Positions 3-11,610 of a DNA stretch of 64,000 bases are shown piece after piece. The position numbers were made by a program, and so were the translations under genes. This stretch comes from Acidimicrobiia bacterium (GTDB lineage Bacteria; Actinomycetota; Acidimicrobiia; Spongiisociales; ZC4RG35): positions 512,001-576,000 of the forward strand of contig OZ244034.1 in assembly GCA_965215185.1 (NCBI GenBank), given 5' to 3'. Within the stretch, counting starts at the first letter, position 1. Every line of letters begins with the position of its first letter. The notes below the pieces were generated by a model that saw only the letters and a program-made list of their open reading frames with translations, was not told the origin of the DNA and ran no database searches.

Positions 3-694
3 TATGTCGCCGTCACCACCACCACAGCCGCGGTGGCGACCGACACTGTCACGACCACTACGTCTGCTCCAAGCGCCACGACAGCCGCCCCCACAACCAC
101 TAGGGCGGCAACTGCAACTACTGGGGCTCCTACTACTACCACGACGGCTGCCCCCACGACCACTACCCGACTACGACTGCTCCCACTACGACTACGACTG
201 CTCCCACTACGACTACGACTGCTCCCACTACGACTACGACTGCTCCCACGACCACCACGACCGAAGCTCACAATCGGCCTGCCGCTCCCGATTTCACCTT
301 GGAATTGGGTAACGGGGGGACATTTACTCTCTCTGCGGAGCCTCGTCCTGTTTTCATCGTGTTTTGGGCCGAGTGGTGACCGGCTTGTCAGCGGGAGTTG
401 CCCGTTATCGATGGTTTAGCCGCCGAGTACCAGGATCGGGTGGCGTTCGTGGCACCGGCCTGGAACGCCAACTTGAGACAAACGCGCCAGAGAGCCGATC
501 AGCTATTGCGTAGCGGGATAGTGATGTGGGGACTGGACGAGAGCCAGCGGATCTTTTCTGCCTTTAGAGTGCTTGGTCAACCGCAGACAGTCTTGATTGG
601 AGCCGACAAAACGATTGTCAACCATCTAAGAGGGGAACAGGGTCAATCAACCTTGAGGAACGCCATCGAAGAGCTGCTGGCGATTTCCGGGTAA
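3..694 (+). CDS. TlpA/thioredoxin-fold redoxin with Thr/Ala/Pro-rich linker; probable selenoprotein (UxxC). 5' end is outside the window; apparent 1-nt frameshift near 165-169
   Basis: Frame 2 from about 170 reads TTTAP repeats, then APDFTLELGNGGTFTLSAEPRPVFIVFWAEW[TGA 377-379]PACQRELPVIDGL, continuous with ORF 398..694 (…VLGQPQTVLI…). The Thr-rich part at 3-167 is in frame 3. Confidence 0.85.
170..253 (+). repeat. 21-bp tandem repeat ACTACGACTGCTCCCACTACG, about 4 copies (TTTAPTT)
   Basis: Units start at 170, 191, 212 and 233; the last is imperfect. Confidence 0.9.
378..416 (+). promoter_or_regulatory. Candidate bacterial SECIS hairpin
   Basis: AGCGGG (390-395) pairs with CCCGTT (401-406) around the loop AGUUG. 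The loop has G at position 2 and starts 16 nt after the UGA. A weak lower stem pairs 378-382 with 412-416. Confidence 0.6.
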
Positions 695-756: not shown

Positions 757-2154
757 TTGATGAGACTCTGGGAATTGCTCCTGACAGGCGCATGCGTTCT
801 GGCCGTGTTGTGGCCGGCGCTGGAGGGTAGAAGACTGCGCCGAGGGGTTATGGCCGCGGTGCTCCTGGTCGTTCTCGGTCTTCAATTCCTAGTGGAAGGG
901 TTCCGTTGGCAATTGTGGGGTCTGTACGGCGTGGCGCTGGGAATGGTGTTGGGCGATGTGCTGGTGGGAGAGCGAGAATTGGTTTCGTATCAGCGTATTC
1001 GCAGGGTTGTACTGGGGCTGGTGGGAATCATCCTGGTGGTCGCTCCCGCCTGGGCTCTGCCGGTGGTGGAACTGCCTCCCCCCACCGGTCCCTATCAGAT
1101 CGCCACCGCCACCTTCGAGATTCGCAGTCCGGACCGCCTGGAGGTCTACGGCCCAAAACCGGGACAAGATCGTCGGCTGATGGCCCAGGTCTGGTACCCC
1201 GGCAGGGTCCCGGAAGGAGCCGAACTCCTGAGCCCATGGATAGCCGATCTGGAGGTGGTGGGGTCGGCTCTGTCGCAAACCATGGGCGTCCCCGGGTTCT
1301 TTCTGGACTACACCGCCTATACCTCCTCCCATAGCTATGAGCGAGCTGTCCCATATCAAGGGCAGATTCCGGTGGTCATCTATTCGCATGGCTGGCGGTT
1401 GTTTCGCAACTCGGCGCTGTACCAAATGGAATCACTGGCCAGCCACGGGTATCTGGTGATTGCTGTGGACCACACCTACGGGTCGGTGGCCACCGTTTTT
1501 CCAGATGGCGAAACCGCCCGGCTGGACCCCGAAGCTCTTCCCGATCCCGACGAGGTAGGAGACGAGGCTTTCGAGGAGGCGGCGGTACGGTTGTTGGAGA
1601 CTTACTCTGAGGATCTCCGCCTGATAATCAGGAGCCTGGAGCAGGGAACCAGTGGCCCCTTCGGATCGCTGGCCGCCATTGCCGATATGGACCGGTTGGG
1701 AATCTACGGTCATTCACTGGGGGGAGGAGCGGCTGTCCGAACCTGCCTGGTGGAGACCGTATGTGGGGTGGTGGCGGCGCTGGACGGTTGGGTGGAGCCC
1801 ATCGATTCTTCGGAACTCTCCGGAGAACTGAACATCCCTTCGATGTTCATCCGCTCCGACCCTTGGCGGGAGTTGGAAAACGATCAGGTGCTACGGGGAT
1901 TGGTGGAACGCAGCAACCGGCGAACCTATTGGATCGGCATACAGGACACTGTCCACAGCGATTTGACCATCGCCCCGGTGCTCACTCCTTTGGGTAGTCG
2001 GCTCGGACTAAGAGGGGCCATGCCCGCAGCCCAGGTGTTTGCGATCATCGACCGCTATTTGGTTTCCTTCTTCGATCGGCACTTGCTGGGAGTGGGCGGA
2101 CGAGATATAACTGAGGCGCCTCCACCGGGGGTCTTGTTCGAGTTGATCCCCTGA
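757..2154 (+). CDS. Membrane-anchored alpha/beta hydrolase (PAF-acetylhydrolase/esterase-like)
   Basis: N-terminal TM helices; PVVIYSHG, LASHGYLVIAVDHTYGS and GHSLGG nucleophile elbow. Confidence 0.85.
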   Translation: MMRLWELLLTGACVLAVLWPALEGRRLRRGVMAAVLLVVLGLQFLVEGFRWQLWGLYGVALGMVLGDVLVGERELVSYQRIRRVVLGLVGIILVVAPAWALPVVELPPPTGPYQIATATFEIRSPDRLEVYGPKPGQDRRLMAQVWYPGRVPEGAELLSPWIADLEVVGSALSQTMGVPGFFLDYTAYTSSHSYERAVPYQGQIPVVIYSHGWRLFRNSALYQMESLASHGYLVIAVDHTYGSVATVFPDGETARLDPEALPDPDEVGDEAFEEAAVRLLETYSEDLRLIIRSLEQGTSGPFGSLAAIADMDRLGIYGHSLGGGAAVRTCLVETVCGVVAALDGWVEPIDSSELSGELNIPSMFIRSDPWRELENDQVLRGLVERSNRRTYWIGIQDTVHSDLTIAPVLTPLGSRLGLRGAMPAAQVFAIIDRYLVSFFDRHLLGVGGRDITEAPPPGVLFELIP

Positions 2155-2176: not shown

Positions 2177-2737
2177 CTAGTTACCACCAAGGATCCGGTC
2201 GATCTCCCTGCCCAACATCAGAGCATTGGAAGGGCCGGCAATTCTCTGGGTGACCTTGCCGTCCGGCCCGATCACGTAGGTTTCAGGCACTCCGAACACC
2301 CCGAAAGAGATGGCGGCTCTGCTGTCAGGATCCGACAGATAGGCAACCCGAGGCGATACTCCCATCTCATTGAGGAAAGCGATGGCGTCATCGGTTCGAT
2401 CCTGGTAAGCGACTTGAATGAGGCGCACTCCCGAACCGAAGAAGGCATCGGCCACTGCCAGGAGGTCGGCGTGTTCCACCCGGCATTCCAGGCACCATGA
2501 GGCGAAGAAGTTGATCAACGTCACCTGCGCCTCCGGAGGCGGTATGGTTGTCTCGGCGGACCCGTCCAGAAGGGGAAGGGTCAAGACCGGAGCAGCAGCC
2601 CCGATCAGCGGAGAGGGGGAAGGCTGGGGGTCTCCTGAGAGGCGAGAAGCGAATACCCCGGCGATCACCGCGGTGGAGATCACGATCAGTGAAGCCAGAA
2701 TCAACCCGGCCCGGCCGCGACTTACTTTCATGAGCAT
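2177..2737 (-). CDS. ccmG: CcmG/DsbE-type thiol-disulfide oxidoreductase
   Basis: TM anchor, NFFASWCLEC, GVFGVPETY; last gene of the ccm operon. Confidence 0.8.
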   Translation of the reverse strand: MLMKVSRGRAGLILASLIVISTAVIAGVFASRLSGDPQPSPSPLIGAAAPVLTLPLLDGSAETTIPPPEAQVTLINFFASWCLECRVEHADLLAVADAFFGSGVRLIQVAYQDRTDDAIAFLNEMGVSPRVAYLSDPDSRAAISFGVFGVPETYVIGPDGKVTQRIAGPSNALMLGREIDRILGGN

Positions 2738-3519
2738 TCTTCCTCAGCTTGGGCGGCAGCCAATTCGGAGGCGACCGCGGTCTGAGTTGGCAGGGCTTCT
2801 ACCACTTTTTCCAACAGCGGAACGGCCAGACCGGGCTGGCCCGTCCCGCACCACAGCACTATGGCTTTGAAATACAGAACCTGGGGGTGATCGGGCGCCA
2901 CTCCCAGAGCGCGGTCCAGGGTTTCTATGGCCAGTTGAGCTTCTCCTGATCCCGCCCAGGCCATCCACCCCAAGTGGCCCAGGGCTTCCGCCTCCTCACC
3001 CGGGGTCGGATTACGTTCCAGCACTCCCCGGTATTCAGTGAAGGCCCCCGAGAAGTCCCCGGCCTGAAAGTAACGGGCGGCCAAGGCCAGACGCATCCCG
3101 TTTATCTGGGGGTGCTCGGCGTTGGCGGCGATGACCGCCTCCATGGTCTCGTTGGAATACTGCGAGGGATCGAAATCTTCGCCGTTGCCCACGGGCTGCT
3201 CATCTGGTTGGGTAAACCATTCCACCGTGACCACCAGCGTTAGGGCCGCGATTGCGAGCAGAGCGGCAATCACCGCCCTTCCCTGGGTCCAGAACGGTGT
3301 TGACTTTTGGTCCTCCTCGGTGGTCTCCGGGTTCCTCATGGCGGAGGAGGTTGTCTCGGACAGCCTCAGCCTGGCTCTTTCCATCTCTTCCAGGTACAGT
3401 TCACGCAGCCTCTGACCGGTATCGGGAGGGATTTCGTTCTCGTCCAGTTGCTGTTGCAGCTCTTCCAAGTCGCGGGCGGCTTGGGCAAGCCGGGCTTCCC
3501 ACTTTTCATACTCGTTCAC
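2728..3519 (-). CDS. TPR protein, CcmI/CycH-like
   Basis: N-terminal 'RDLEELQQQLDENEI…LRELY' segment, a TM helix and TPR-like helices; lies between ccmH and ccmG. Confidence 0.7.
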   Translation of the reverse strand: MNEYEKWEARLAQAARDLEELQQQLDENEIPPDTGQRLRELYLEEMERARLRLSETTSSAMRNPETTEEDQKSTPFWTQGRAVIAALLAIAALTLVVTVEWFTQPDEQPVGNGEDFDPSQYSNETMEAVIAANAEHPQINGMRLALAARYFQAGDFSGAFTEYRGVLERNPTPGEEAEALGHLGWMAWAGSGEAQLAIETLDRALGVAPDHPQVLYFKAIVLWCGTGQPGLAVPLLEKVVEALPTQTAVASELAAAQAEEECS

Positions 3520-3947
3520 GGCGACTCACCAGAATCTGCAGAGGAGGCGGGTCTTCTTAGACGGGAGAGGGCCAGGCCCACTCCCGTCAGCAAGGCCGCC
3601 AAGGGCAGGGCCCACAACAAGGCAGTGGTGGCGCTAAATGGGGGATCAAGCAACTGGGAGTTGGGGTAGGAGGCCATCAGCCGATCGAGGACCTGTTGCT
3701 CGGAGAGGCCCTGTGCCACCATCTCTCGCACATAGGCCATCATGTCGGCCGCATAGGAACTGGGCGACTCGGCGATTGATTCACCTTCGCACGCCGGGCA
3801 TCGTATCTGCTTGCCGATGTTTTCGGCGCGATCGGTCAGCGCCGGGTCAGCGTTGAGTAACGAAACCACCACGAATAAGCCGAGCGCGATGGTGATCAGG
3901 GGAGAGACCCAGCGGAGAGGGCGGGGCGTTTGCGACAGGTTAGACAC
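3516..3947 (-). CDS. ccmH: Cytochrome c biogenesis protein CcmH
   Basis: IRCPACEGESIAES motif; GTG start near the ccmF stop. Confidence 0.88.
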   Translation of the reverse strand: MSNLSQTPRPLRWVSPLITIALGLFVVVSLLNADPALTDRAENIGKQIRCPACEGESIAESPSSYAADMMAYVREMVAQGLSEQQVLDRLMASYPNSQLLDPPFSATTALLWALPLAALLTGVGLALSRLRRPASSADSGESP

Positions 3948-5997
3948 CTGCACGCGCCGTTTCCCTGGAGGACAGGGAGGATGATTTGCGGCGTCTTCTG
4001 CCCCGAAGGGAATACAGACCGCCAGCCGCACAGGTTAGCCCCCCCAACCACAGCACCCATTGCAAGGGAGCGGTGGCCACCCGCAAGGTGATGCCCTGTT
4101 GATCGATACGCGTCACGCTCAGATAGAGGTCTTCTTTCCAGGTACGGTGGATGCCGGGAGTGGCTATCGGCAATGCCAAGTTCTCAAATCGGCTAAGGGC
4201 CGGTTCCGCCCGTCCCCGTAATTCGTCGTTTCTCCAAATCTCCACGAGAGCGGAGCTTTCCAGTCGATTGGGGGTTCTGGCGGTGGACACGCCCGTATGG
4301 ACCAGTTCGTAGCCAGCGAATTCCACCCTATCTCCGGGCGCCATCTCCACCCGGTCGAGAGTCTGCCCCAGGTTCGAGGTGGCGGCGATTGCCACTGCCA
4401 CCAAAGCCACTCCGGCATGCGCCAACTGGCCGCCCCAATAGCCCCGATCAGATCTGATCACTCTTGCCACGGCGCTCCTGAGAGGGACGGTCCGCGCGGT
4501 TGCCACCCTTTGGGACTGCATCCAGAGACGGTTGCCCCCCACCGCCACCACCCAGGTGCCGGCTATCACGGCCAGCACCGCGTACCCCACCGAGGTGGTG
4601 GTGATGATCACCAGGGCTCCGGCCCCGAGCGCCAGTTGGAGAGGCAGACGAAGGCGAGGCCACACAACGCTGGGTCGGGCCACCCGCCAGGGCAGGGCGG
4701 GTCCCACACCCATCGCCAACAGCAGTGCAAAGCTGATCGGAACGGCCAAACGATCAAAGAAAGGCCGCCCAACTCCAACTTCGGAGCCGGTGAAGGCTTC
4801 CAGTACCAGCGGATAGAGGGTTCCCGTCAACACCACCAAGGCATAGACCGACAACAGCAGGTTGTTGACCAAAAAGCCTCCCTCCCGGCTGGAGAGCGAC
4901 TCCAGCCGAGGGGGTGAGGAGATCTGCGGGGAACGGACCGCAAACAAGACAAAAGATCCCACCACCACCACCACCAAAAAGCCCAGGAGCGCCGGGCCGA
5001 TAGGTGATTGGGTAAAGGAATGGACCGAGGCGATCACCCCCGATCGAGTCAGGAAGGTGCCCAGGATGGTCAGAGAGAAAGCTCCGATCACCAATACGAA
5101 ATTCCAAGCCTCCAACATTCCTCTTCGTTCTTGAACCAGGGAGGAGTGCAGGAAGGCGGTGGCCACCAACCAGGGCATGAAAGAGGCGTTTTCTACCGGA
5201 TCCCAGGCCCAAAACCCTCCCCAACCCAGCACCTCATAGGCCCACCAGGCGCCCAGGGTGATACCCGTAGTGAGAAACACCCAGCTCACTCTGGTCCACA
5301 GGCCGCTTCGGCGAAGCCACTGAGCACCCATCTGGCCAAGGGCCAAGGCTGAGATGCCGTAGGCAAACGGAACGGTCAACCCCACATAACCCAGATACAG
5401 CAGCGGGGGGTGGATGGCCATCAACAGATGGTTCTGCAGGAGCGGGTTTGGTCCCGCGCCATCTGCTGGACCCACGGCGGCAGAAAAGGGAAAGGGGCTG
5501 GAAGCGGCGCAGGAACGGGCGGCGGCCTCGACACACACTTCGAAGGGGTTGGCCACCGTTGCCATAAGTCCAAAGAAGAAGACCCCAACTGCCCCGATCA
5601 CCGCCAAGGCCCCCCAGTCGAGGGTGTCCGGTTCGGTCTTTCTGGTGGTTGCTCTTCGCCACACTGCGTAGGCGTAAGCGGCAAGTACCAGCCCCCACAA
5701 GACTATGGAGCCTTCCAGGGCCGCCCAGGCGGTGGCGATGTTAAAGGGAAACGGGGTGTAGCGAGAGTGGTGGTCGGCCACATAGGAGATGGTGAAGTCG
5801 TTGACCAACAGGGCAGTCTCCAAGATGACCATGGCGCCCAGAGCGGCGAAGACCATGCCATAAAGGGATCGTCGGATGGTGGCGGTGGAATGGGATGCAG
5901 ACGACCGGCTTCGAGCCGCCCGCCACGAGGTCACCGTCAGCCCGGCCGAGGCTGCCAACGCCCCCCACACCGCCAAGGTACCGGCGAGCGAAAGCAT
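3940..5997 (-). CDS. ccmF: Heme lyase CcmF
   Basis: WGGFWAWDPVENASFMPW, HPPLLYLGY, SVHSF. Confidence 0.95.
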   Translation of the reverse strand: MLSLAGTLAVWGALAASAGLTVTSWRAARSRSSASHSTATIRRSLYGMVFAALGAMVILETALLVNDFTISYVADHHSRYTPFPFNIATAWAALEGSIVLWGLVLAAYAYAVWRRATTRKTEPDTLDWGALAVIGAVGVFFFGLMATVANPFEVCVEAAARSCAASSPFPFSAAVGPADGAGPNPLLQNHLLMAIHPPLLYLGYVGLTVPFAYGISALALGQMGAQWLRRSGLWTRVSWVFLTTGITLGAWWAYEVLGWGGFWAWDPVENASFMPWLVATAFLHSSLVQERRGMLEAWNFVLVIGAFSLTILGTFLTRSGVIASVHSFTQSPIGPALLGFLVVVVVGSFVLFAVRSPQISSPPRLESLSSREGGFLVNNLLLSVYALVVLTGTLYPLVLEAFTGSEVGVGRPFFDRLAVPISFALLLAMGVGPALPWRVARPSVVWPRLRLPLQLALGAGALVIITTTSVGYAVLAVIAGTWVVAVGGNRLWMQSQRVATARTVPLRSAVARVIRSDRGYWGGQLAHAGVALVAVAIAATSNLGQTLDRVEMAPGDRVEFAGYELVHTGVSTARTPNRLESSALVEIWRNDELRGRAEPALSRFENLALPIATPGIHRTWKEDLYLSVTRIDQQGITLRVATAPLQWVLWLGGLTCAAGGLYSLRGRRRRKSSSLSSRETARAGV

Positions 5998-6407
5998 CAG
6001 GAGGAGGAGTTATCTGTGACTGACGGAGCCTGATAGTTCTCATCGTGGGAGATGAGAGCTCCATCGGCTCGGTAGTCATCACCCCGCCAGGCGCCGTCCA
6101 ATAGCACGTTGACGTCTTCGTCGAAGAGCAAAGGGGGAGTGTCGGTGAGAATCACCGGGATGGTGGAAGCGCCGTCGGTGATTTGGAATCGCAGCGGGTC
6201 GGCACCTTCCTGCAGGGAACCTTCAACCACGATTCCTGCCAGCCGGAAGCGTCGCCCGTCGGGGAAATCGGCCCGTTGGGCAACCGCTTCGCGAGGGGTT
6301 AGATAGTAGACAAGGTCACTTCCGATGTTTTGAAGCAGGAAAAACCCGGCTATGAGGATGGCCAGCCCTGCTGAGATCAGAAACGGCCAACGGCGTTGTT
6401 TCATCAC
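5997..6407 (-). CDS. ccmE: Heme chaperone CcmE
   Basis: LVYYLTP, RFRLAGIVVEGS, and HDENY (HxxxY heme motif). Confidence 0.9.
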   Translation of the reverse strand: MMKQRRWPFLISAGLAILIAGFFLLQNIGSDLVYYLTPREAVAQRADFPDGRRFRLAGIVVEGSLQEGADPLRFQITDGASTIPVILTDTPPLLFDEDVNVLLDGAWRGDDYRADGALISHDENYQAPSVTDNSSS

Positions 6408-6514
6408 TCTCGGGGGTCCGTTGCCCTCCGCCATCGCACCGCCAAGCGGAGGATGTAACCCGCCAGAATTACTCCCGTGGCCAGATAAGCCGCCCACACC
6501 CAGCCGATGCTCAA
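6404..6514 (-). CDS. ccmD: Heme exporter CcmD (36 aa, not in the ORF track)
   Basis: TTG start gives MSIGWVWAAYLATGVILAGYILRLAVRWRRATDPRE*. It has VWxAY plus a TM helix and basic tail, and overlaps the ccmC stop and ccmE start. Confidence 0.8.
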   Translation of the reverse strand: MSIGWVWAAYLATGVILAGYILRLAVRWRRATDPRE

Positions 6515-7215
6515 GCTTTTGCCTGTCCCAGTTGGGGAGCGGAGACCGGGCTATGGACGGTCAATTCCACAGTGCCAACTGCCTCTTCCAGGCGGGCGAG
6601 TTCCGTGCGGAAAGCCAGTAGCGTCACGTAGAGCAATGTGAAGGCTGCCAGGTTCACCAGCAGCGCCACGACCATTGCTCCTTCCATCTGGATACCGTCG
6701 GGGCGGATGGTCAGACCTTGATGGAGAGTGCGCCAGAGCTTCACCGAAAAATAGACGAGGGGGACCTGCACGACGGCCACCGCTCCCAACACCGCCGAGC
6801 GTCGCGCCCGCAGGTGTTGGTCGACAGTGGTGCGACGCAGGGCCAGGTAACCGATGTATACGAAGAACATCAGGGCGGTAGTGACCAGGCGGGCGTCGCC
6901 CCAGTCCCAGTAGGTGCCCCATACCGGCTTTCCCCAGATCATGCCGGTGGCCAGAGCCACCGCGGTGAACAGCACTCCCGTCTCGGCGGATGCCTCGGCC
7001 ACTCGATCCCAACTCATCCGCCTGAAAAACAGCCATCCGATGCTGGCCGCGGCTGTCACCCCGAAAGCCAGGAACGCAAGCCACGCCGAGGGAACATGGA
7101 TATAGAGGATGCGCACGAAATCGCCTTGGAAAGCATCGGGGGGCGAGGTGAAAGCAGTGACCAGTCCCCCTCCCAGAGCCGCGGCGGTCACTGTGACCAA
7201 CAGCCTCTTTTTCAC
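6511..7215 (-). CDS. ccmC: Heme exporter CcmC
   Basis: ILYIHVPSAW, WGKPVWGTYWDWGDARL, WRTLHQ; GTG start overlaps the ccmB stop. Confidence 0.93.
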   Translation of the reverse strand: MKKRLLVTVTAAALGGGLVTAFTSPPDAFQGDFVRILYIHVPSAWLAFLAFGVTAAASIGWLFFRRMSWDRVAEASAETGVLFTAVALATGMIWGKPVWGTYWDWGDARLVTTALMFFVYIGYLALRRTTVDQHLRARRSAVLGAVAVVQVPLVYFSVKLWRTLHQGLTIRPDGIQMEGAMVVALLVNLAAFTLLYVTLLAFRTELARLEEAVGTVELTVHSPVSAPQLGQAKA

Positions 7216-7886
7216 AGGGCGATTTCCTCCAGAGCCCGAGCCGACATGACTCCTGCGGCCGCCAGGCCAAGATCGGCGATAACCAACACCAGTACCCAAG
7301 CGATGATACTCCTGTCCGCAATCAAACTTTCCAGCGCCTGGGAAGCTCCCATTAGCAGGGGAGTGGCCAGCGGCGCCATCAGGAGGGGAGCGAGGCTGGT
7401 GCGGGCCCGCAGCCCGGTGGTCACATCCGCGGCTAGAGTGCCAAGCAGCGACAGTCCCACCGTGGCCAAGCCGATGACCGGCGCCATGAGCCATGCTCCG
7501 GTGGGCGCCCGGTAGTCGTAAAAGACGATCACCGGGATCAGCAGTGTTCCAGCCACTGTGGTCAGGATCAATGCGGAGGCGGCCGAACGGCCCGCGAAAC
7601 GGGCGGCCGGATCGAGGCCGGTGAGGGCCAGGACCCGTCGCTGGGTAGATGTCTCCAAAGCTGTCTGGCGGAAAACGATCATCATTCCAAACAGCAGGGT
7701 GATCAACCAGTACACAGGGGCGGCCAGATCACGAAGCAACATGGGAGATGCGTTCGTGGCCAGGGGCACCACCCAGGTGGCCACCACGGCGAAGGGAAAC
7801 ACCACTGAGTAGGCCTCGCCGCTTCTGACCTCAACCCGCAGGTCGCGGCAGGCGATGATTCTCGCTGACTTCCAGAACCCGGTCAT
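7212..7886 (-). CDS. ccmB: Heme exporter permease CcmB
   Basis: RDLRVEVRS N-terminus, about 6 TM helices, LAPLLMAPLATPLL. Confidence 0.85.
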   Translation of the reverse strand: MTGFWKSARIIACRDLRVEVRSGEAYSVVFPFAVVATWVVPLATNASPMLLRDLAAPVYWLITLLFGMMIVFRQTALETSTQRRVLALTGLDPAARFAGRSAASALILTTVAGTLLIPVIVFYDYRAPTGAWLMAPVIGLATVGLSLLGTLAADVTTGLRARTSLAPLLMAPLATPLLMGASQALESLIADRSIIAWVLVLVIADLGLAAAGVMSARALEEIAL

Positions 7887-8596
7887 GCAATTTGTCCATT
7901 CGAAATCTCCACCACTCGGTGCGTCCAAGACGACAGTCGGGCGGGATCGTGAGAGACGCACAGCGCTGCCCCTCCCCGGCTGGTGGTTGTTTGGATGAGA
8001 TGGTCGACGATCAAAGCCGCGTCTCGGTCCAGCCCGGCGTCGGGTTCGTCGAGCAGCAGGAGGCGGGGGGCGCCGATCAGCAGCCGGGCCAGGTCGGCTC
8101 GGCGTCTCATTCCGTTGGAGCAGCGTTCCGCTCGGATGCCCGTGGCGCCGGCCAAGCCCACCTTCTCCAGGGCCAGATGGCCCACCCCGGCGGGGTGTCC
8201 ACTCAACTGTGAGGTAAGGGCCAGATTTTCGCCGAGAGTCAGATCGGGATAGAGCGCCGGGAGATGTCCGGACCAGCCAATCTGCGAGCGCACCGCCGGA
8301 GTTTGGGAGGCGCCCAACGGAACCCCCAGCACGGTCCCCGAACCTGCGGTAGGAGCGATGAAGGTGGCTATCACAGCCAACAGCGTGGACTTGCCGGCGC
8401 CGTTCGGTCCGGCCACACCCAGCGACTCGCCGGGCTGGAGAGTGAGGTTGCAACGCGAAAGCACTCTGACGCCGCCCAAGGAAACGGAGAGATCAACCAA
8501 CTCGACCAGTGGGGCAACGGGGGACGGGGTTTGGGCAGCTGATAGGTGGGCCACTCGCTCTGAGTGTATGGGCTTTTGCTGTGCAGGCGCTCCCAT
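7883..8596 (-). CDS. ccmA: ABC ATPase CcmA (start uncertain)
   Basis: GPNGAGKST, SNGMRRR, LLLLDEP; first gene of the operon. Confidence 0.85.
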   Translation of the reverse strand: MGAPAQQKPIHSERVAHLSAAQTPSPVAPLVELVDLSVSLGGVRVLSRCNLTLQPGESLGVAGPNGAGKSTLLAVIATFIAPTAGSGTVLGVPLGASQTPAVRSQIGWSGHLPALYPDLTLGENLALTSQLSGHPAGVGHLALEKVGLAGATGIRAERCSNGMRRRADLARLLIGAPRLLLLDEPDAGLDRDAALIVDHLIQTTTSRGGAALCVSHDPARLSSWTHRVVEISNGQIA

Positions 8597-8794
8597 GCGA
8601 AATCTCCCTCTGTTCTCCGCTTGTCCTGCGGAGAACATCCCCGCTCTCTCCGTATCACTTACGACGAACAGAGACCGGAAATAACCGCTGCCGCGGATGC
8701 GCCTTAGGGCCGAGTGGTGATTGTGGGAGTGCGAGGGGAGGGCCAAGTCTGAAGTTTGCGGAGGGTCTATTTCAGCAATGCCAATCCCGAACAC

Positions 8795-10193: not shown

Positions 10194-10346
10194 AAGGGAG
10201 TGGTTGGTGACTGGGATGGACACCGACCTGTCGGGGCAATTGTAGACCGTTCGACCAATGCCAAACACCTGCTTAGTTGGCACAGCGTGGTTTGTGAAGA
10301 AGATGGTCATGTATGAGATTTTGGGTGCATAACATCCTGATTGGCA

Positions 10347-10841
10347 ATGAATAGGAAAATGGCGGTCTTGGGTGTGCTGGTGGCCGTGTTGACGGCCAGT
10401 TGCGGTTCGGATCCGGGCGCAACCCTCGAAGCGGTGTCGGTCCCCGACAAATTGAATTGGATCACCCCCGAGGAGTTGTCGGAGGAGTTGGCCCTAGGCC
10501 CGGCGGCGGTGGTGAACTTCTGGGCTTCGTGGTGCGGCCCGTGCCGGGCGGAGGCGCCGGTACTGCGGAAGGCTCATCAAGATTACGGCGACAGGGTGCG
10601 GTTTATCGGGGTGGCGGTGGACGACACTGCTTCCGGAGCTTTCGACTTCATGGAGTCGTATGGGATCACCTTTGAGAACTATTTGGGGGATGGCGGTCCC
10701 ATGATGGCGCAATACGAGGCTTTTGGCATTCCTTTTACCGTGTTCACCGATACGGCCGGAGAGGCGCTTTACGTTCATCGCGGGATAATTGATGAGGACC
10801 TCCTCCTCCTGTGGACCGATGAACTTTCCCGTCTCGGTTGA
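10347..10841 (+). CDS. TlpA/ResA-like thiol-disulfide oxidoreductase lipoprotein
   Basis: Lipobox LTASC, NFWASWCGPC, GIPFT. Confidence 0.9.
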   Translation: MNRKMAVLGVLVAVLTASCGSDPGATLEAVSVPDKLNWITPEELSEELALGPAAVVNFWASWCGPCRAEAPVLRKAHQDYGDRVRFIGVAVDDTASGAFDFMESYGITFENYLGDGGPMMAQYEAFGIPFTVFTDTAGEALYVHRGIIDEDLLLLWTDELSRLG

Positions 10842-10935
10842 CGGTGGAAAGCTCAACGCCATCCTTGTAGTAGGGTGCCGTCGTCTCGTTAAGGATGCTT
10901 TGCGGCAAGAGTTTGACGGCCACACGGTGCTTTAG

Positions 10936-11610
10936 ATGGATCTGACGCTGCTGGGACGGGTGGTGGGCGCCATGCTCGCCGCGGCTTTGACTGTGCGGGC
11001 GCTCAGGGGAAGGCGGCCTCCGGAATTTTCGGAGCCGTTCAACGATTTGCTGGGTGCCGTGCTGGTGGGGATGGCGGCAGGGCGCCTGGCCTATGTGGTT
11101 GGAGAGGGAATCAACGTCATCGCTCATCCACTTGAGTTGGTACTGATACGCGGCGGCATTGTTCCTGTGCCTGCAGCTATGGCGGCCATTGGTTTCTTGG
11201 TTTGGGCCTGCCGCCGTGATCTGTGGAGCCGCTTGGATCATCTTGTTCCGGCGGCGCTGGTCGGGTTGGCGGTATGGGAGGCCGGGTGCTGGTGGCAGGG
11301 ATCTTGTCTGGGTTCGCCGTCCGGTCTGTGGTGGGCAATTGCCCTGCCGGGCAGCAACCTCACCCGTCACCCGGTGGGCATGTACGTAGCCGTGCTATTG
11401 GTTGCGGCGGCGATTTGGCTGTGGAGGCGCCCTCTGCCCTGGAGTGGGGGCAGTGCCGCGGCCGGGCTGGGATGGGCGTCGGCTGTCCGGTTGATGGTTC
11501 CCATTTGGTCGGTGGGGGGTTGGTCCAATTGGACATGGTGGTATCTGGTGGGCTTGGTCCTGGGTCTGGGTGGGGTGGTGGCGGCGCGGCACAGATCAAA
11601 GGGCCGATAA
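10936..11610 (+). CDS. Divergent Lgt-like membrane protein
   Basis: GRLAYV, IRGGI, GCWWQGSCLG…WWAI and RHPVGMY align with Lgt motifs, but key residues differ. Confidence 0.65.
   Translation: MDLTLLGRVVGAMLAAALTVRALRGRRPPEFSEPFNDLLGAVLVGMAAGRLAYVVGEGINVIAHPLELVLIRGGIVPVPAAMAAIGFLVWACRRDLWSRLDHLVPAALVGLAVWEAGCWWQGSCLGSPSGLWWAIALPGSNLTRHPVGMYVAVLLVAAAIWLWRRPLPWSGGSAAAGLGWASAVRLMVPIWSVGGWSNWTWWYLVGLVLGLGGVVAARHRSKGR

Follow-up and report, generated by a model that had tools for sequence, protein, structure and literature searches.

A TGA codon that stands where a redox enzyme should carry its catalytic cysteine may be a stop codon or a codon for selenocysteine (Sec), and the question of which it is arises at the left edge of a 64,000-nucleotide stretch of DNA (the window) from an Acidimicrobiia bacterium of the order Spongiisociales (GenBank assembly GCA_965215185.1, contig OZ244034.1). 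The window corresponds to G000:C1:512001-576000, G000 being the source genome, a 3.12-Mb single contig with 60.7% G+C. Its positions 1-694 make up the 3' two-thirds of a single gene, here called gene B (∼354 codons), the ATG of which lies 369 nt 5' of the window at G000:C1:511631 (= L020:3631). An earlier interpretation of the window (the sequence-only reading) had proposed a hidden selenoprotein of the TlpA type at this position; it had missed the start of the gene upstream of the window, a frame shift near position 167 and a second Sec paralogue upstream.

In this study, gene B was compared with its orthologues at the level of codons, RNA structure and protein fold. Gene B very probably encodes a Sec-containing extracytoplasmic thiol-disulfide oxidoreductase, as predicted from these comparisons, with UGA at the nucleophilic position of the W-C-x-x-C motif.

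Reading frame across the TGA codon

Frame 2 of the window reads ...APDFTLELGNGGTFTLSAEPRPVFIVFWAEW-TGA(377-379)-PAC-QRELPVIDG... and is closed by the TAA stop of gene B at 692-694 on the forward strand, as are all features of the gene given below. In fuller form this frame reads ...EAHNRPAAPDFTLELGNGGTFTLSAEPRPVFIVFWAEW, the TGA at 377-379 and then PACQRELPVIDGLAAEY... until the TAA. The TGA, predicted to be read as Sec, occupies the position of the first Cys of W-C-x-x-C thioredoxins, exactly as the sequence-only reading had stated, and the resolving Cys of the U-x-x-C centre follows as a TGT codon at 386-388, which is invariant in the alignment. Both lie in a thioredoxin-fold domain of the ResA/TlpA/CcmG type with the centre W-U-P-A-C, which comprises 137 residues (281-691) and was identified by Pfam, AlphaFold2, Foldseek and PDB sequence matches.

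The suspicion that gene callers split the gene was correct, and public databases carry only N-terminal and C-terminal fragments of the family. These protein records comprise 74 C-terminal fragments of 81-104 aa and four N-terminal fragments ending in FWAEW, and those with names are called 'hypothetical protein' (HUG32928.1, HUG07688.1, HUO46109.1, MDE0233158.1 and MDE0601616.1). The N-terminus of gene B is shared by the orthologues P0075 and P0076. A search of public genome contigs gave three true relatives, which were metagenome-assembled genomes labelled 'bacterium' or 'Acidimicrobiia bacterium'; a methanogen match in the same search covered only 26 residues and was rejected as spurious.

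Conservation of the TGA codon among relatives

The locus was checked at the level of reads with Logan contigs from four public runs of four studies (X1, X5, X8 and X9) over L020:2900-4750. No contig of any run differs at the TGA of gene B or at that of the upstream paralogue (gene A, described below), including diverged contigs with 11-12 other letters. A read error at the TGA is excluded because the contigs of all four runs show TGA; the TGC or TGT that the sequence-only reading had named as a ground for rejecting its proposal does not occur in them.

The domain was searched in 40 relatives and in G000 itself. A match with exactly one TGA was found in 33 of these 41 genomes, namely G000, all 16 congeners, six of eight genomes from other genera of the family and ten of 16 other genomes of the order; the eight genomes without such a match include the unpublished G027 and G038, on which no conclusion depends. 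In each of the 16 congeners there are two or three copies in tandem. When the class was sampled evenly (201 genomes), matches at E<=1e-20 came from 39 genomes, all of which belong to the order of the window. One TGA was present in 40 of the 43 matches from this sample; the other three came from G024 and G219, which belong to one genus, and from G098, and among these three the residue at the TGA position was read in G024.

A total of 55 distinct Sec-type copies from 33 genomes (L021-L059) were collected, leaving out the third paralogues of G007 and G009 and a fragment at a contig end in G001. The motif W-A-E/D-W-TGA-x-x-C is present in 55/55 of them, and the TGA is kept at the same codon down to 38% identity. 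Coding is conserved on both sides of it, as the comparison of 17 congeneric gene B orthologues shows: ahead of the TGA (32 codons, 114 pairs) the ratio of nonsynonymous to synonymous substitution rates (dN/dS) has a median of 0.06, and past it (104 codons, 136 pairs) one of 0.17. The alignment of relatives that had been suggested as a check thus returned TGA, with conserved flanks, in close and distant orthologues alike. Furthermore, homologues from the PDB and the Cys forms P0001, P0003, P0004 and L060 have the first Cys of WCxxC in the alignment column of U.

The hairpin downstream of the TGA codon

A hairpin of the bacterial selenocysteine insertion sequence (bSECIS) type lies at 390-406. 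Its stem (390-395/401-406) begins 10 nt after the TGA and consists of the pairs A-U, G-U, C-G, G-C, G-C and G-C; the loop, AGUUG (396-400), begins 16 nt after the UGA and has G as its second base. The 6-bp stem and the loop had been described in precisely these terms from the window alone. The hairpin overlies the codons for (Q)-R-E-L-P-(V).

The bSECIS model summarized in a 2026 review has a loop of 3-9 nt, a stem of 4-16 bp, a G in the first two loop positions, 16-37 nt between UGA and loop and a minimum free energy (MFE) of <= -7.5 (PMC13188914). The hairpin of gene B agrees with it, having a loop of 5 nt, a stem of 6 bp and a spacing of 16 nt, which is the lower limit, and its MFE is -8.0 for the 19-nt span and -7.3 for the bare 17 nt. 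Among the Sec copies the 19-nt span is at or below -7.5 kcal/mol in 50 of 55, with a median of -10.1, and the same span in four Cys-type genes gives -0.1 to -1.5 kcal/mol.

The codons in the core of the hairpin are nearly fixed (CGG 51/55, GAG 51/55, TTG 47/55 and CCC 48/55), whereas elsewhere in these genes the codons for Glu, Leu and Arg vary freely, for example GAG 28 / GAA 13 at +16 and TTG 21 / CTG 15 at +13. In the outer stem the bases change together: pair 14-30 is AU in 32 copies, GC in 14, GU in three and CG in two, and pair 15-29 is AU in 21, GC in 21 and GU in seven. Overall, 94.7% of 318 cells are paired, with compensatory changes at four of the six pairs. The observed covariation score was reached by 0/500 shuffles and slid controls were 43-63% paired, these controls being imperfect because of the relatedness of the sequences and because one of them supplied the structure. 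RNAalifold recovered the same stem independently. As judged from this alignment, the hairpin is under selection as RNA. Rfam has no model for the hairpin of the redoxin genes, and a scan of L020:2800-4800 at E<=1 gave two chance-level matches (a plant microRNA model and isrG), far below their gathering scores.

Selenocysteine machinery and a cysteine-type relative

The sequence-only reading had recommended a search of the genome for the Sec machinery, and all four components are present in G000. These are selA (405.3 bits), selB adjoining it (309.8 bits), tRNA-Sec (78.2 bits, called by ARAGORN as tRNA-SeC(tca), 93 nt) and a Sec-type selD (387.7 bits) at G000:C1:1864217-1865137 on the reverse strand (L001), which has one in-frame TGA in SHGAG-U-GCK. 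The product of selD is thus itself a selenoprotein, and its gene has a 7-bp stem with a 5-nt loop, AUCGG, 14 nt after the UGA. This hairpin is slightly outside the published bSECIS model, with no G in the first two loop positions, and its geometry resembles that of the redoxin-gene hairpins.

The view that selenium use is uncommon in Actinomycetota does not hold for this lineage, in which selA was found in 39 of the 41 genomes of the order; a 2006 survey counts Actinobacteria as one of three selenoprotein-rich phyla (PMC1794560).

A relative with cysteine offers the complementary case. The orthologue in G024 (L060) has TGC, in the context TGC ... AAC AAG GAG CTG CCG GTG; it keeps E-L-P, but its synonymous codons destroy the stem. 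In the G024 genome neither selA nor selD was found, nor any selB above the level of EF-Tu and other GTPases, and its tRNA-Sec match reaches only 50 bits, a borderline value near the scores of ordinary tRNAs in G000.

Protein fold and membrane anchoring

The domain matches the Pfam families AhpC-TSA (45.2 bits), Redoxin (39.9 bits, cut-off 26.6) and Thioredoxin (38.4 bits), all above their cut-offs. AlphaFold2, run on the thioredoxin-fold domain with a 36-sequence alignment, gave a predicted local distance difference test (pLDDT) value of 96.4. In Foldseek the model matched ResA first (template-modelling score, TM, 0.88-0.90; root-mean-square deviation 1.4 A; 24% identity), followed by DsbF/DsbE of Mycobacterium tuberculosis, CcmG and pneumococcal Etrx1/2. 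The matches to ResA, CcmG and DsbF have TM values of 0.83-0.90 over 132-146 columns and take in the extra N-terminal hairpin and the central insert of this family of folds, that is, the extracytoplasmic thioredoxins like TlpA, ResA and CcmG (cd02966). Residues invariant in the 36 sequences are, among others, W32, U33, C36, P41 and P101, and P101 is predicted to be at the usual cis-proline position.

No NCBIfam model reached its cut-off. The best was the ResA subfamily NF002854, with 51.3 bits for the domain of gene B and 49.6 for that of gene A against 170 bits. The selenoprotein models NF041054 (WAxxUGC_long, 21.9 / 24.7 against 300 bits) and NF041057 (Rcas_1661, 17.9 for gene A only against 190 bits) do not include the family.

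The N-terminus of gene B, upstream of the window in frame 3, reads MSRTRLSKPAGRVMMAVWILSGLVWGSCGS; it is hydrophobic and ends in a lipobox-like ...GSC. A lipoprotein-like signal opens nearly all full-length orthologues, and their N-termini, like that of gene B, are hydrophobic and end in L/V-x-[AGS]-C, as judged by eye. Between this signal and the domain lies a stalk rich in Thr, Pro and Ala, ∼190 residues long in gene B with 40% Thr. Its middle part is encoded at 1-167 in frame 3 and the remainder, PTTTAPTTTTTAP...EAHNRP, at 168-280 in frame 2. The length of the stalk differs widely among orthologues, from a few residues to >200. The Thr/Pro stalk described from the window is real, with a 21-nt unit repeated in tandem at 168-261 (4.5 copies, 95% matches). 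The description of a TlpA-type protein exported on this stalk likewise agrees with the ResA/TlpA fold match and with the lipobox-like N-terminus seen on inspection, export itself being predicted.

The upstream paralogue

Directly upstream of gene B and outside the window lies gene A (G000:C1:510942-511631; L020:2942-3631), with 229 codons, a TGA at codon 126 and a U-P-S-C centre. It is built in the same way as gene B, with MKRGGRWSKIAGLLLVAMVASSCGGG, a stalk and then ...FFWAEW-TGA-PSC-KRELP..., and it has a hairpin of its own, AGCGGG-AGUUG-CCCGCU, with -10.7 kcal/mol. The TGA stop of gene A overlaps the ATG of gene B (ATGA), and the two genes are predicted to be a tandem, translationally coupled pair because such an overlap is the usual sign of coupling. 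Some congeners have a third, stalk-less paralogue, in which the hairpin has moved by one base, CGGC-AGUU-GCCG (L046, L050, L051 and L054).

Proposed mechanism and possible clients

In the proposed mechanism, SelB with Sec-tRNA(Sec) would bind the hairpin and insert Sec at the UGA. The precursor would then be exported, lipidated at the lipobox Cys (..GSC..) and tethered to the outer face of the membrane, with the Thr/Pro stalk as a spacer between membrane and redoxin domain. Linkers of other actinobacterial proteins are O-glycosylated, and the stalk may be likewise. The U-x-x-C centre would cycle between the selenol/thiol and the selenylsulfide, reducing disulfides of exported proteins. Electrons would probably come from a membrane protein of the CcdA/DsbD type, CcdA being a known electron donor, and one CcdA/DsbD_TM homologue is present elsewhere in G000. 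Its clients are most likely to be found in System I cytochrome c maturation, as components or substrates of that pathway: in several families of the order, the gene lies tail-to-tail with the cytochrome c maturation (ccm) operon. The assignment of clients is the weakest point of the mechanism.

In the window, gene B is followed by a gene for a membrane-anchored alpha/beta hydrolase like platelet-activating factor (PAF) acetylhydrolase (isoform II) at 757-2154 (+). The complete System I ccm operon then lies at 2177-8794 (-), convergent with the Sec genes, and contains the ATP-binding cassette ATPase gene ccmA, ccmC, ccmE, ccmF, ccmH, a CcmH/I-like gene with tetratricopeptide repeats and a gene for a Cys-type CcmG-like redoxin (FFASWCLEC). 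The two Cys paralogues that had been noted in the window are both there, FFASWCLEC at 2177-2737 (-) and NFWASWCGPC at 10341-10841 (+). The latter, a third TlpA-like redoxin of the Cys type, is followed by a short gene like lgt (prolipoprotein diacylglyceryl transferase), the two together at window 10341-11610 (+).

The adjacency to the ccm operon, also part of the sequence-only reading, is real and recurs in three of the four distant relatives examined. In G035, G026 and G033, which represent three other families, the Sec gene is tail-to-tail with the CcmG-like gene, with ccmF and ccmC beyond it. In G035, G026 and G037 the gene like PAF acetylhydrolase is absent at that position, and the two redoxin genes are ∼100 bp apart there.

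Weighing of the interpretation

Several points weigh against the interpretation of gene B as a Sec-containing reductase, some against Sec itself and some against the assigned role. Incorporation of Sec and expression of gene B are predictions from sequence. Folding of the single sequence was no better than that of shuffles (z = -0.15, +0.17 for 64 nt, -1.49 for 101 nt and +1.08); these z-scores are uninformative, so the single-sequence fold was dropped as evidence and the comparative data were used instead, with the imperfect controls described above. Lipoprotein status was assigned from lipobox-like motifs by inspection and not by a predictor. The direction of catalysis, as a reductase, is suggested by analogy, and an oxidase role has been proposed for M. 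tuberculosis DsbE/DsbF. In the assembly of G035 (98% complete, 120 contigs), selA was not found, although this genome has two TGA copies, a tRNA-Sec match of 80 bits and a Sec-type selD. The absence of selA probably reflects an assembly gap at the selAB operon. A selB-like match in the same genome covers only 267 residues with 205.6 bits. To these points are to be added the limits of the ccm neighbourhood and the frame shift in the stalk, which are taken up with the explanations that they favour.

The alternative that survives best concerns the role of the protein and leaves its Sec in place. Gene B may have no part in cytochrome c maturation and may instead encode a general surface antioxidant or repair reductase that, like the pneumococcal Etrx lipoproteins, feeds exported methionine sulfoxide reductases, or a disulfide-forming oxidase of the M. 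tuberculosis DsbE/DsbF kind, and we consider this as probable as its opposite. The link to ccm is one of neighbourhood: the genes are convergent and not co-transcribed, in G000 the hydrolase gene lies between them, and the ccm operon already has, at its end, a dedicated CcmG-like gene of the Cys type. In G025 there are no ccm genes in the 6.5 kb downstream, where lgt and histidine genes are found instead. (An Lgt-domain gene also adjoins the Sec redoxin in that genome, at L068:129-1577.) The structural matches include Etrx1/2 and DsbE/DsbF (TM 0.81-0.87), and so long a stalk suggests that the protein acts at a distance from the membrane, the place where Ccm works. However, four families of the order share the tail-to-tail arrangement with the ccmG-like gene, and the best matches in both sequence and fold are to ResA. 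A ccm-linked role and a general role as a surface reductase or oxidase are about evenly balanced.

A more specific form of the ccm-linked role can be stated, and we regard it as unlikely. In it the tandem Sec-redoxin lipoproteins would serve System I cytochrome c maturation, or the repair of its components, as an arm that depends on selenium, retained throughout the order at the 3' end of the ccm operon and held on a long stalk that is probably glycosylated.

The second alternative accepts the family as real selenoproteins and takes gene B of this genome to be a pseudogene, in which a deletion in the stalk parts the signal peptide from the redoxin domain. Near window 167 the assembled gene indeed leaves frame 3 for frame 2, in which no start codon precedes the stalk, and the open frame as assembled has 196 aa, compared with 256-531 aa in most orthologues. 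The copy in G011 (L023, in the stalk before 1498) also looks frameshifted. However, one extra base follows window 167, at the one-base gap 167-168 of the assembly, in contigs of two runs from separate studies that otherwise match the locus exactly. In X1 this base has a depth of 17.7 of 17.7 in a 2498-nt contig with no other letter over 1297 bases, and in X5 the same base has a depth of 7.7 of 20.7; window 167 is outside the coverage of X8 and X9. Once the extra base is included, 354 codons form one frame, interrupted by TGA at codon 250 alone and closed by TAA at codon 355. The domain 3' of the shift shows no further damage. The shift is most likely an assembly error, and at most a strain variant, because the contigs of X1 and X5 supply the base that restores the single frame; the shift in the stalk of G011 fits errors in repeats. 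A pseudogene is thus very unlikely. Repeats in such low-contig assemblies may hold further one-base errors.

It is still less probable that the UGA of gene B is read through as something other than Sec, either as Cys or Trp by a near-cognate or mis-charged tRNA or by reassignment of UGA. Sec is here predicted from sequence, and in some systems the tRNA for Sec can be charged with Cys when selenium is limiting. Against this, UGA serves as a true stop within the operon itself and in many orthologues, the Sec machinery is complete with a Sec-type SelD, the SECIS-like hairpin is under selection, and the relative that has no sel genes (G024) uses TGC.

Finally, it is barely credible that the TGA is an ordinary stop, arisen by a nonsense mutation or separating two genes (a stalk protein ending in ...FWAEW and an unrelated small open reading frame): gene callers annotate it so, database fragments end in FWAEW or start downstream and TGA is a true stop elsewhere in the genome (at the end of gene A), but one thioredoxin fold spans the TGA (pLDDT 96.4), the codon is present in 55/55 copies, even at 38% identity, and dN/dS is low on both flanks, a nonsense mutation would not last across an order, and the hairpin covaries and is absent where TGC replaces TGA.

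Significance

With gene B read as a selenoprotein gene, an entire order of uncultured Acidimicrobiia is under-annotated both in its redox enzymes and in its dependence on selenium, because the public records found cut the gene into 'hypothetical protein' fragments. The single-contig assembly contains at least one one-base error in a repeat, as the frame shift shows. The order also offers a natural experiment, in which most genomes have Sec with the hairpin and one genus (inspected in G024) has Cys without the hairpin and without sel genes; this contrast could be used to study why Sec persists in an exported thiol-disulfide enzyme. If the interpretation is true, the hairpin formed by the conserved codons for R-E-L-P would represent a minimal SECIS with a 16-nt spacing, the shortest allowed, and if a selenium-dependent arm of cytochrome c maturation existed, the respiration of abundant uncultured bacteria would depend on the supply of selenium. 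General knowledge of selenoproteins is unchanged by the finding: the family is an unannotated selenoprotein of an already known kind (UxxC TlpA/redoxin).

Comparison with known systems

Selenoproteins with a thioredoxin fold and a UxxC motif have been predicted since 2005-2008. Table 1 of the review cited above has rows for a 'Thiol:disulfide interchange protein', a 'Redoxin family protein (PF08534, UxxC)' and a 'UGC-containing TlpA' family, and the representatives for 'Thiol-disulfide isomerase-like' and 'Redoxin family' UxxC proteins are MGB1650493.1 and HEU0032618.1 (PMC13188914); Prx-like UxxC families appear in the GOS survey (PMC2398784). When compared by motif and Pfam domain alone, the present family is like the UxxC families in these rows in having a thioredoxin-fold TlpA/redoxin domain with Sec first in UxxC, and like them it was predicted from an in-frame TGA, Cys homologues and a bSECIS. 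The rows are silent on a lipoprotein signal, a Thr/Pro stalk and a tandem pair, as they are on restriction to one order within Acidimicrobiia and on a ccm neighbourhood, and the present family may be one of those listed. In the main texts describing deep-Sep (PMC12013277) and BSepDB (PMC13326102) the terms redoxin, TlpA, Actinomycetota and Acidimicrob have no occurrences, and their supplements or database may list the family. Sec use within Acidimicrobiia has been described for Actinomarina in a preprint, where the redoxin family is not named (10.64898/2026.04.03.716425). A search of the literature for this specific Acidimicrobiia family turned up only the generic UxxC TlpA/redoxin rows.

Two NCBIfam families, NF041057 ('Rcas_1661 family thioredoxin-like (seleno)lipoprotein') and NF041054 ('ResA-like WAxxUGC motif-containing protein'), are also exported thioredoxin-like proteins with Sec, and the start of the motif, W-A-x-x-U, is common to gene B and NF041054 by name. 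Gene B differs from both in that its motif is U-x-x-C and not U-G-C, and the scores given above are far below their cut-offs.

Among the Cys enzymes, ResA of Bacillus subtilis, CcmG/DsbE and TlpA are extracytoplasmic reductants of cytochrome c maturation, and gene B shares with them a predicted location outside the membrane and ccm neighbours. ResA is the best match in fold, in NCBIfam and in PDB sequences, and has W-C-x-x-C followed by a conserved Glu and Pro as gene B does. It differs from gene B, at ∼24% identity, in having Cys where gene B has Sec and a membrane helix where gene B has a predicted lipid anchor and a long stalk. M. tuberculosis DsbE (MPT53, 1lu4) and DsbF (3ios), which are proposed oxidases, are actinobacterial secreted TlpA-like proteins (TM 0.81-0.87), as gene B is predicted to be, and unlike it they are Cys enzymes without a stalk. 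The surface-exposed Etrx1 and Etrx2 of Streptococcus pneumoniae (PDB 4hqs and 2yp6/4hqz; TM 0.82-0.84), which act with exported methionine sulfoxide reductase (Msr), are lipoprotein-anchored extracytoplasmic TlpA-like thioredoxins, as gene B is predicted to be, and differ from it as Cys enzymes without a Thr/Pro stalk.

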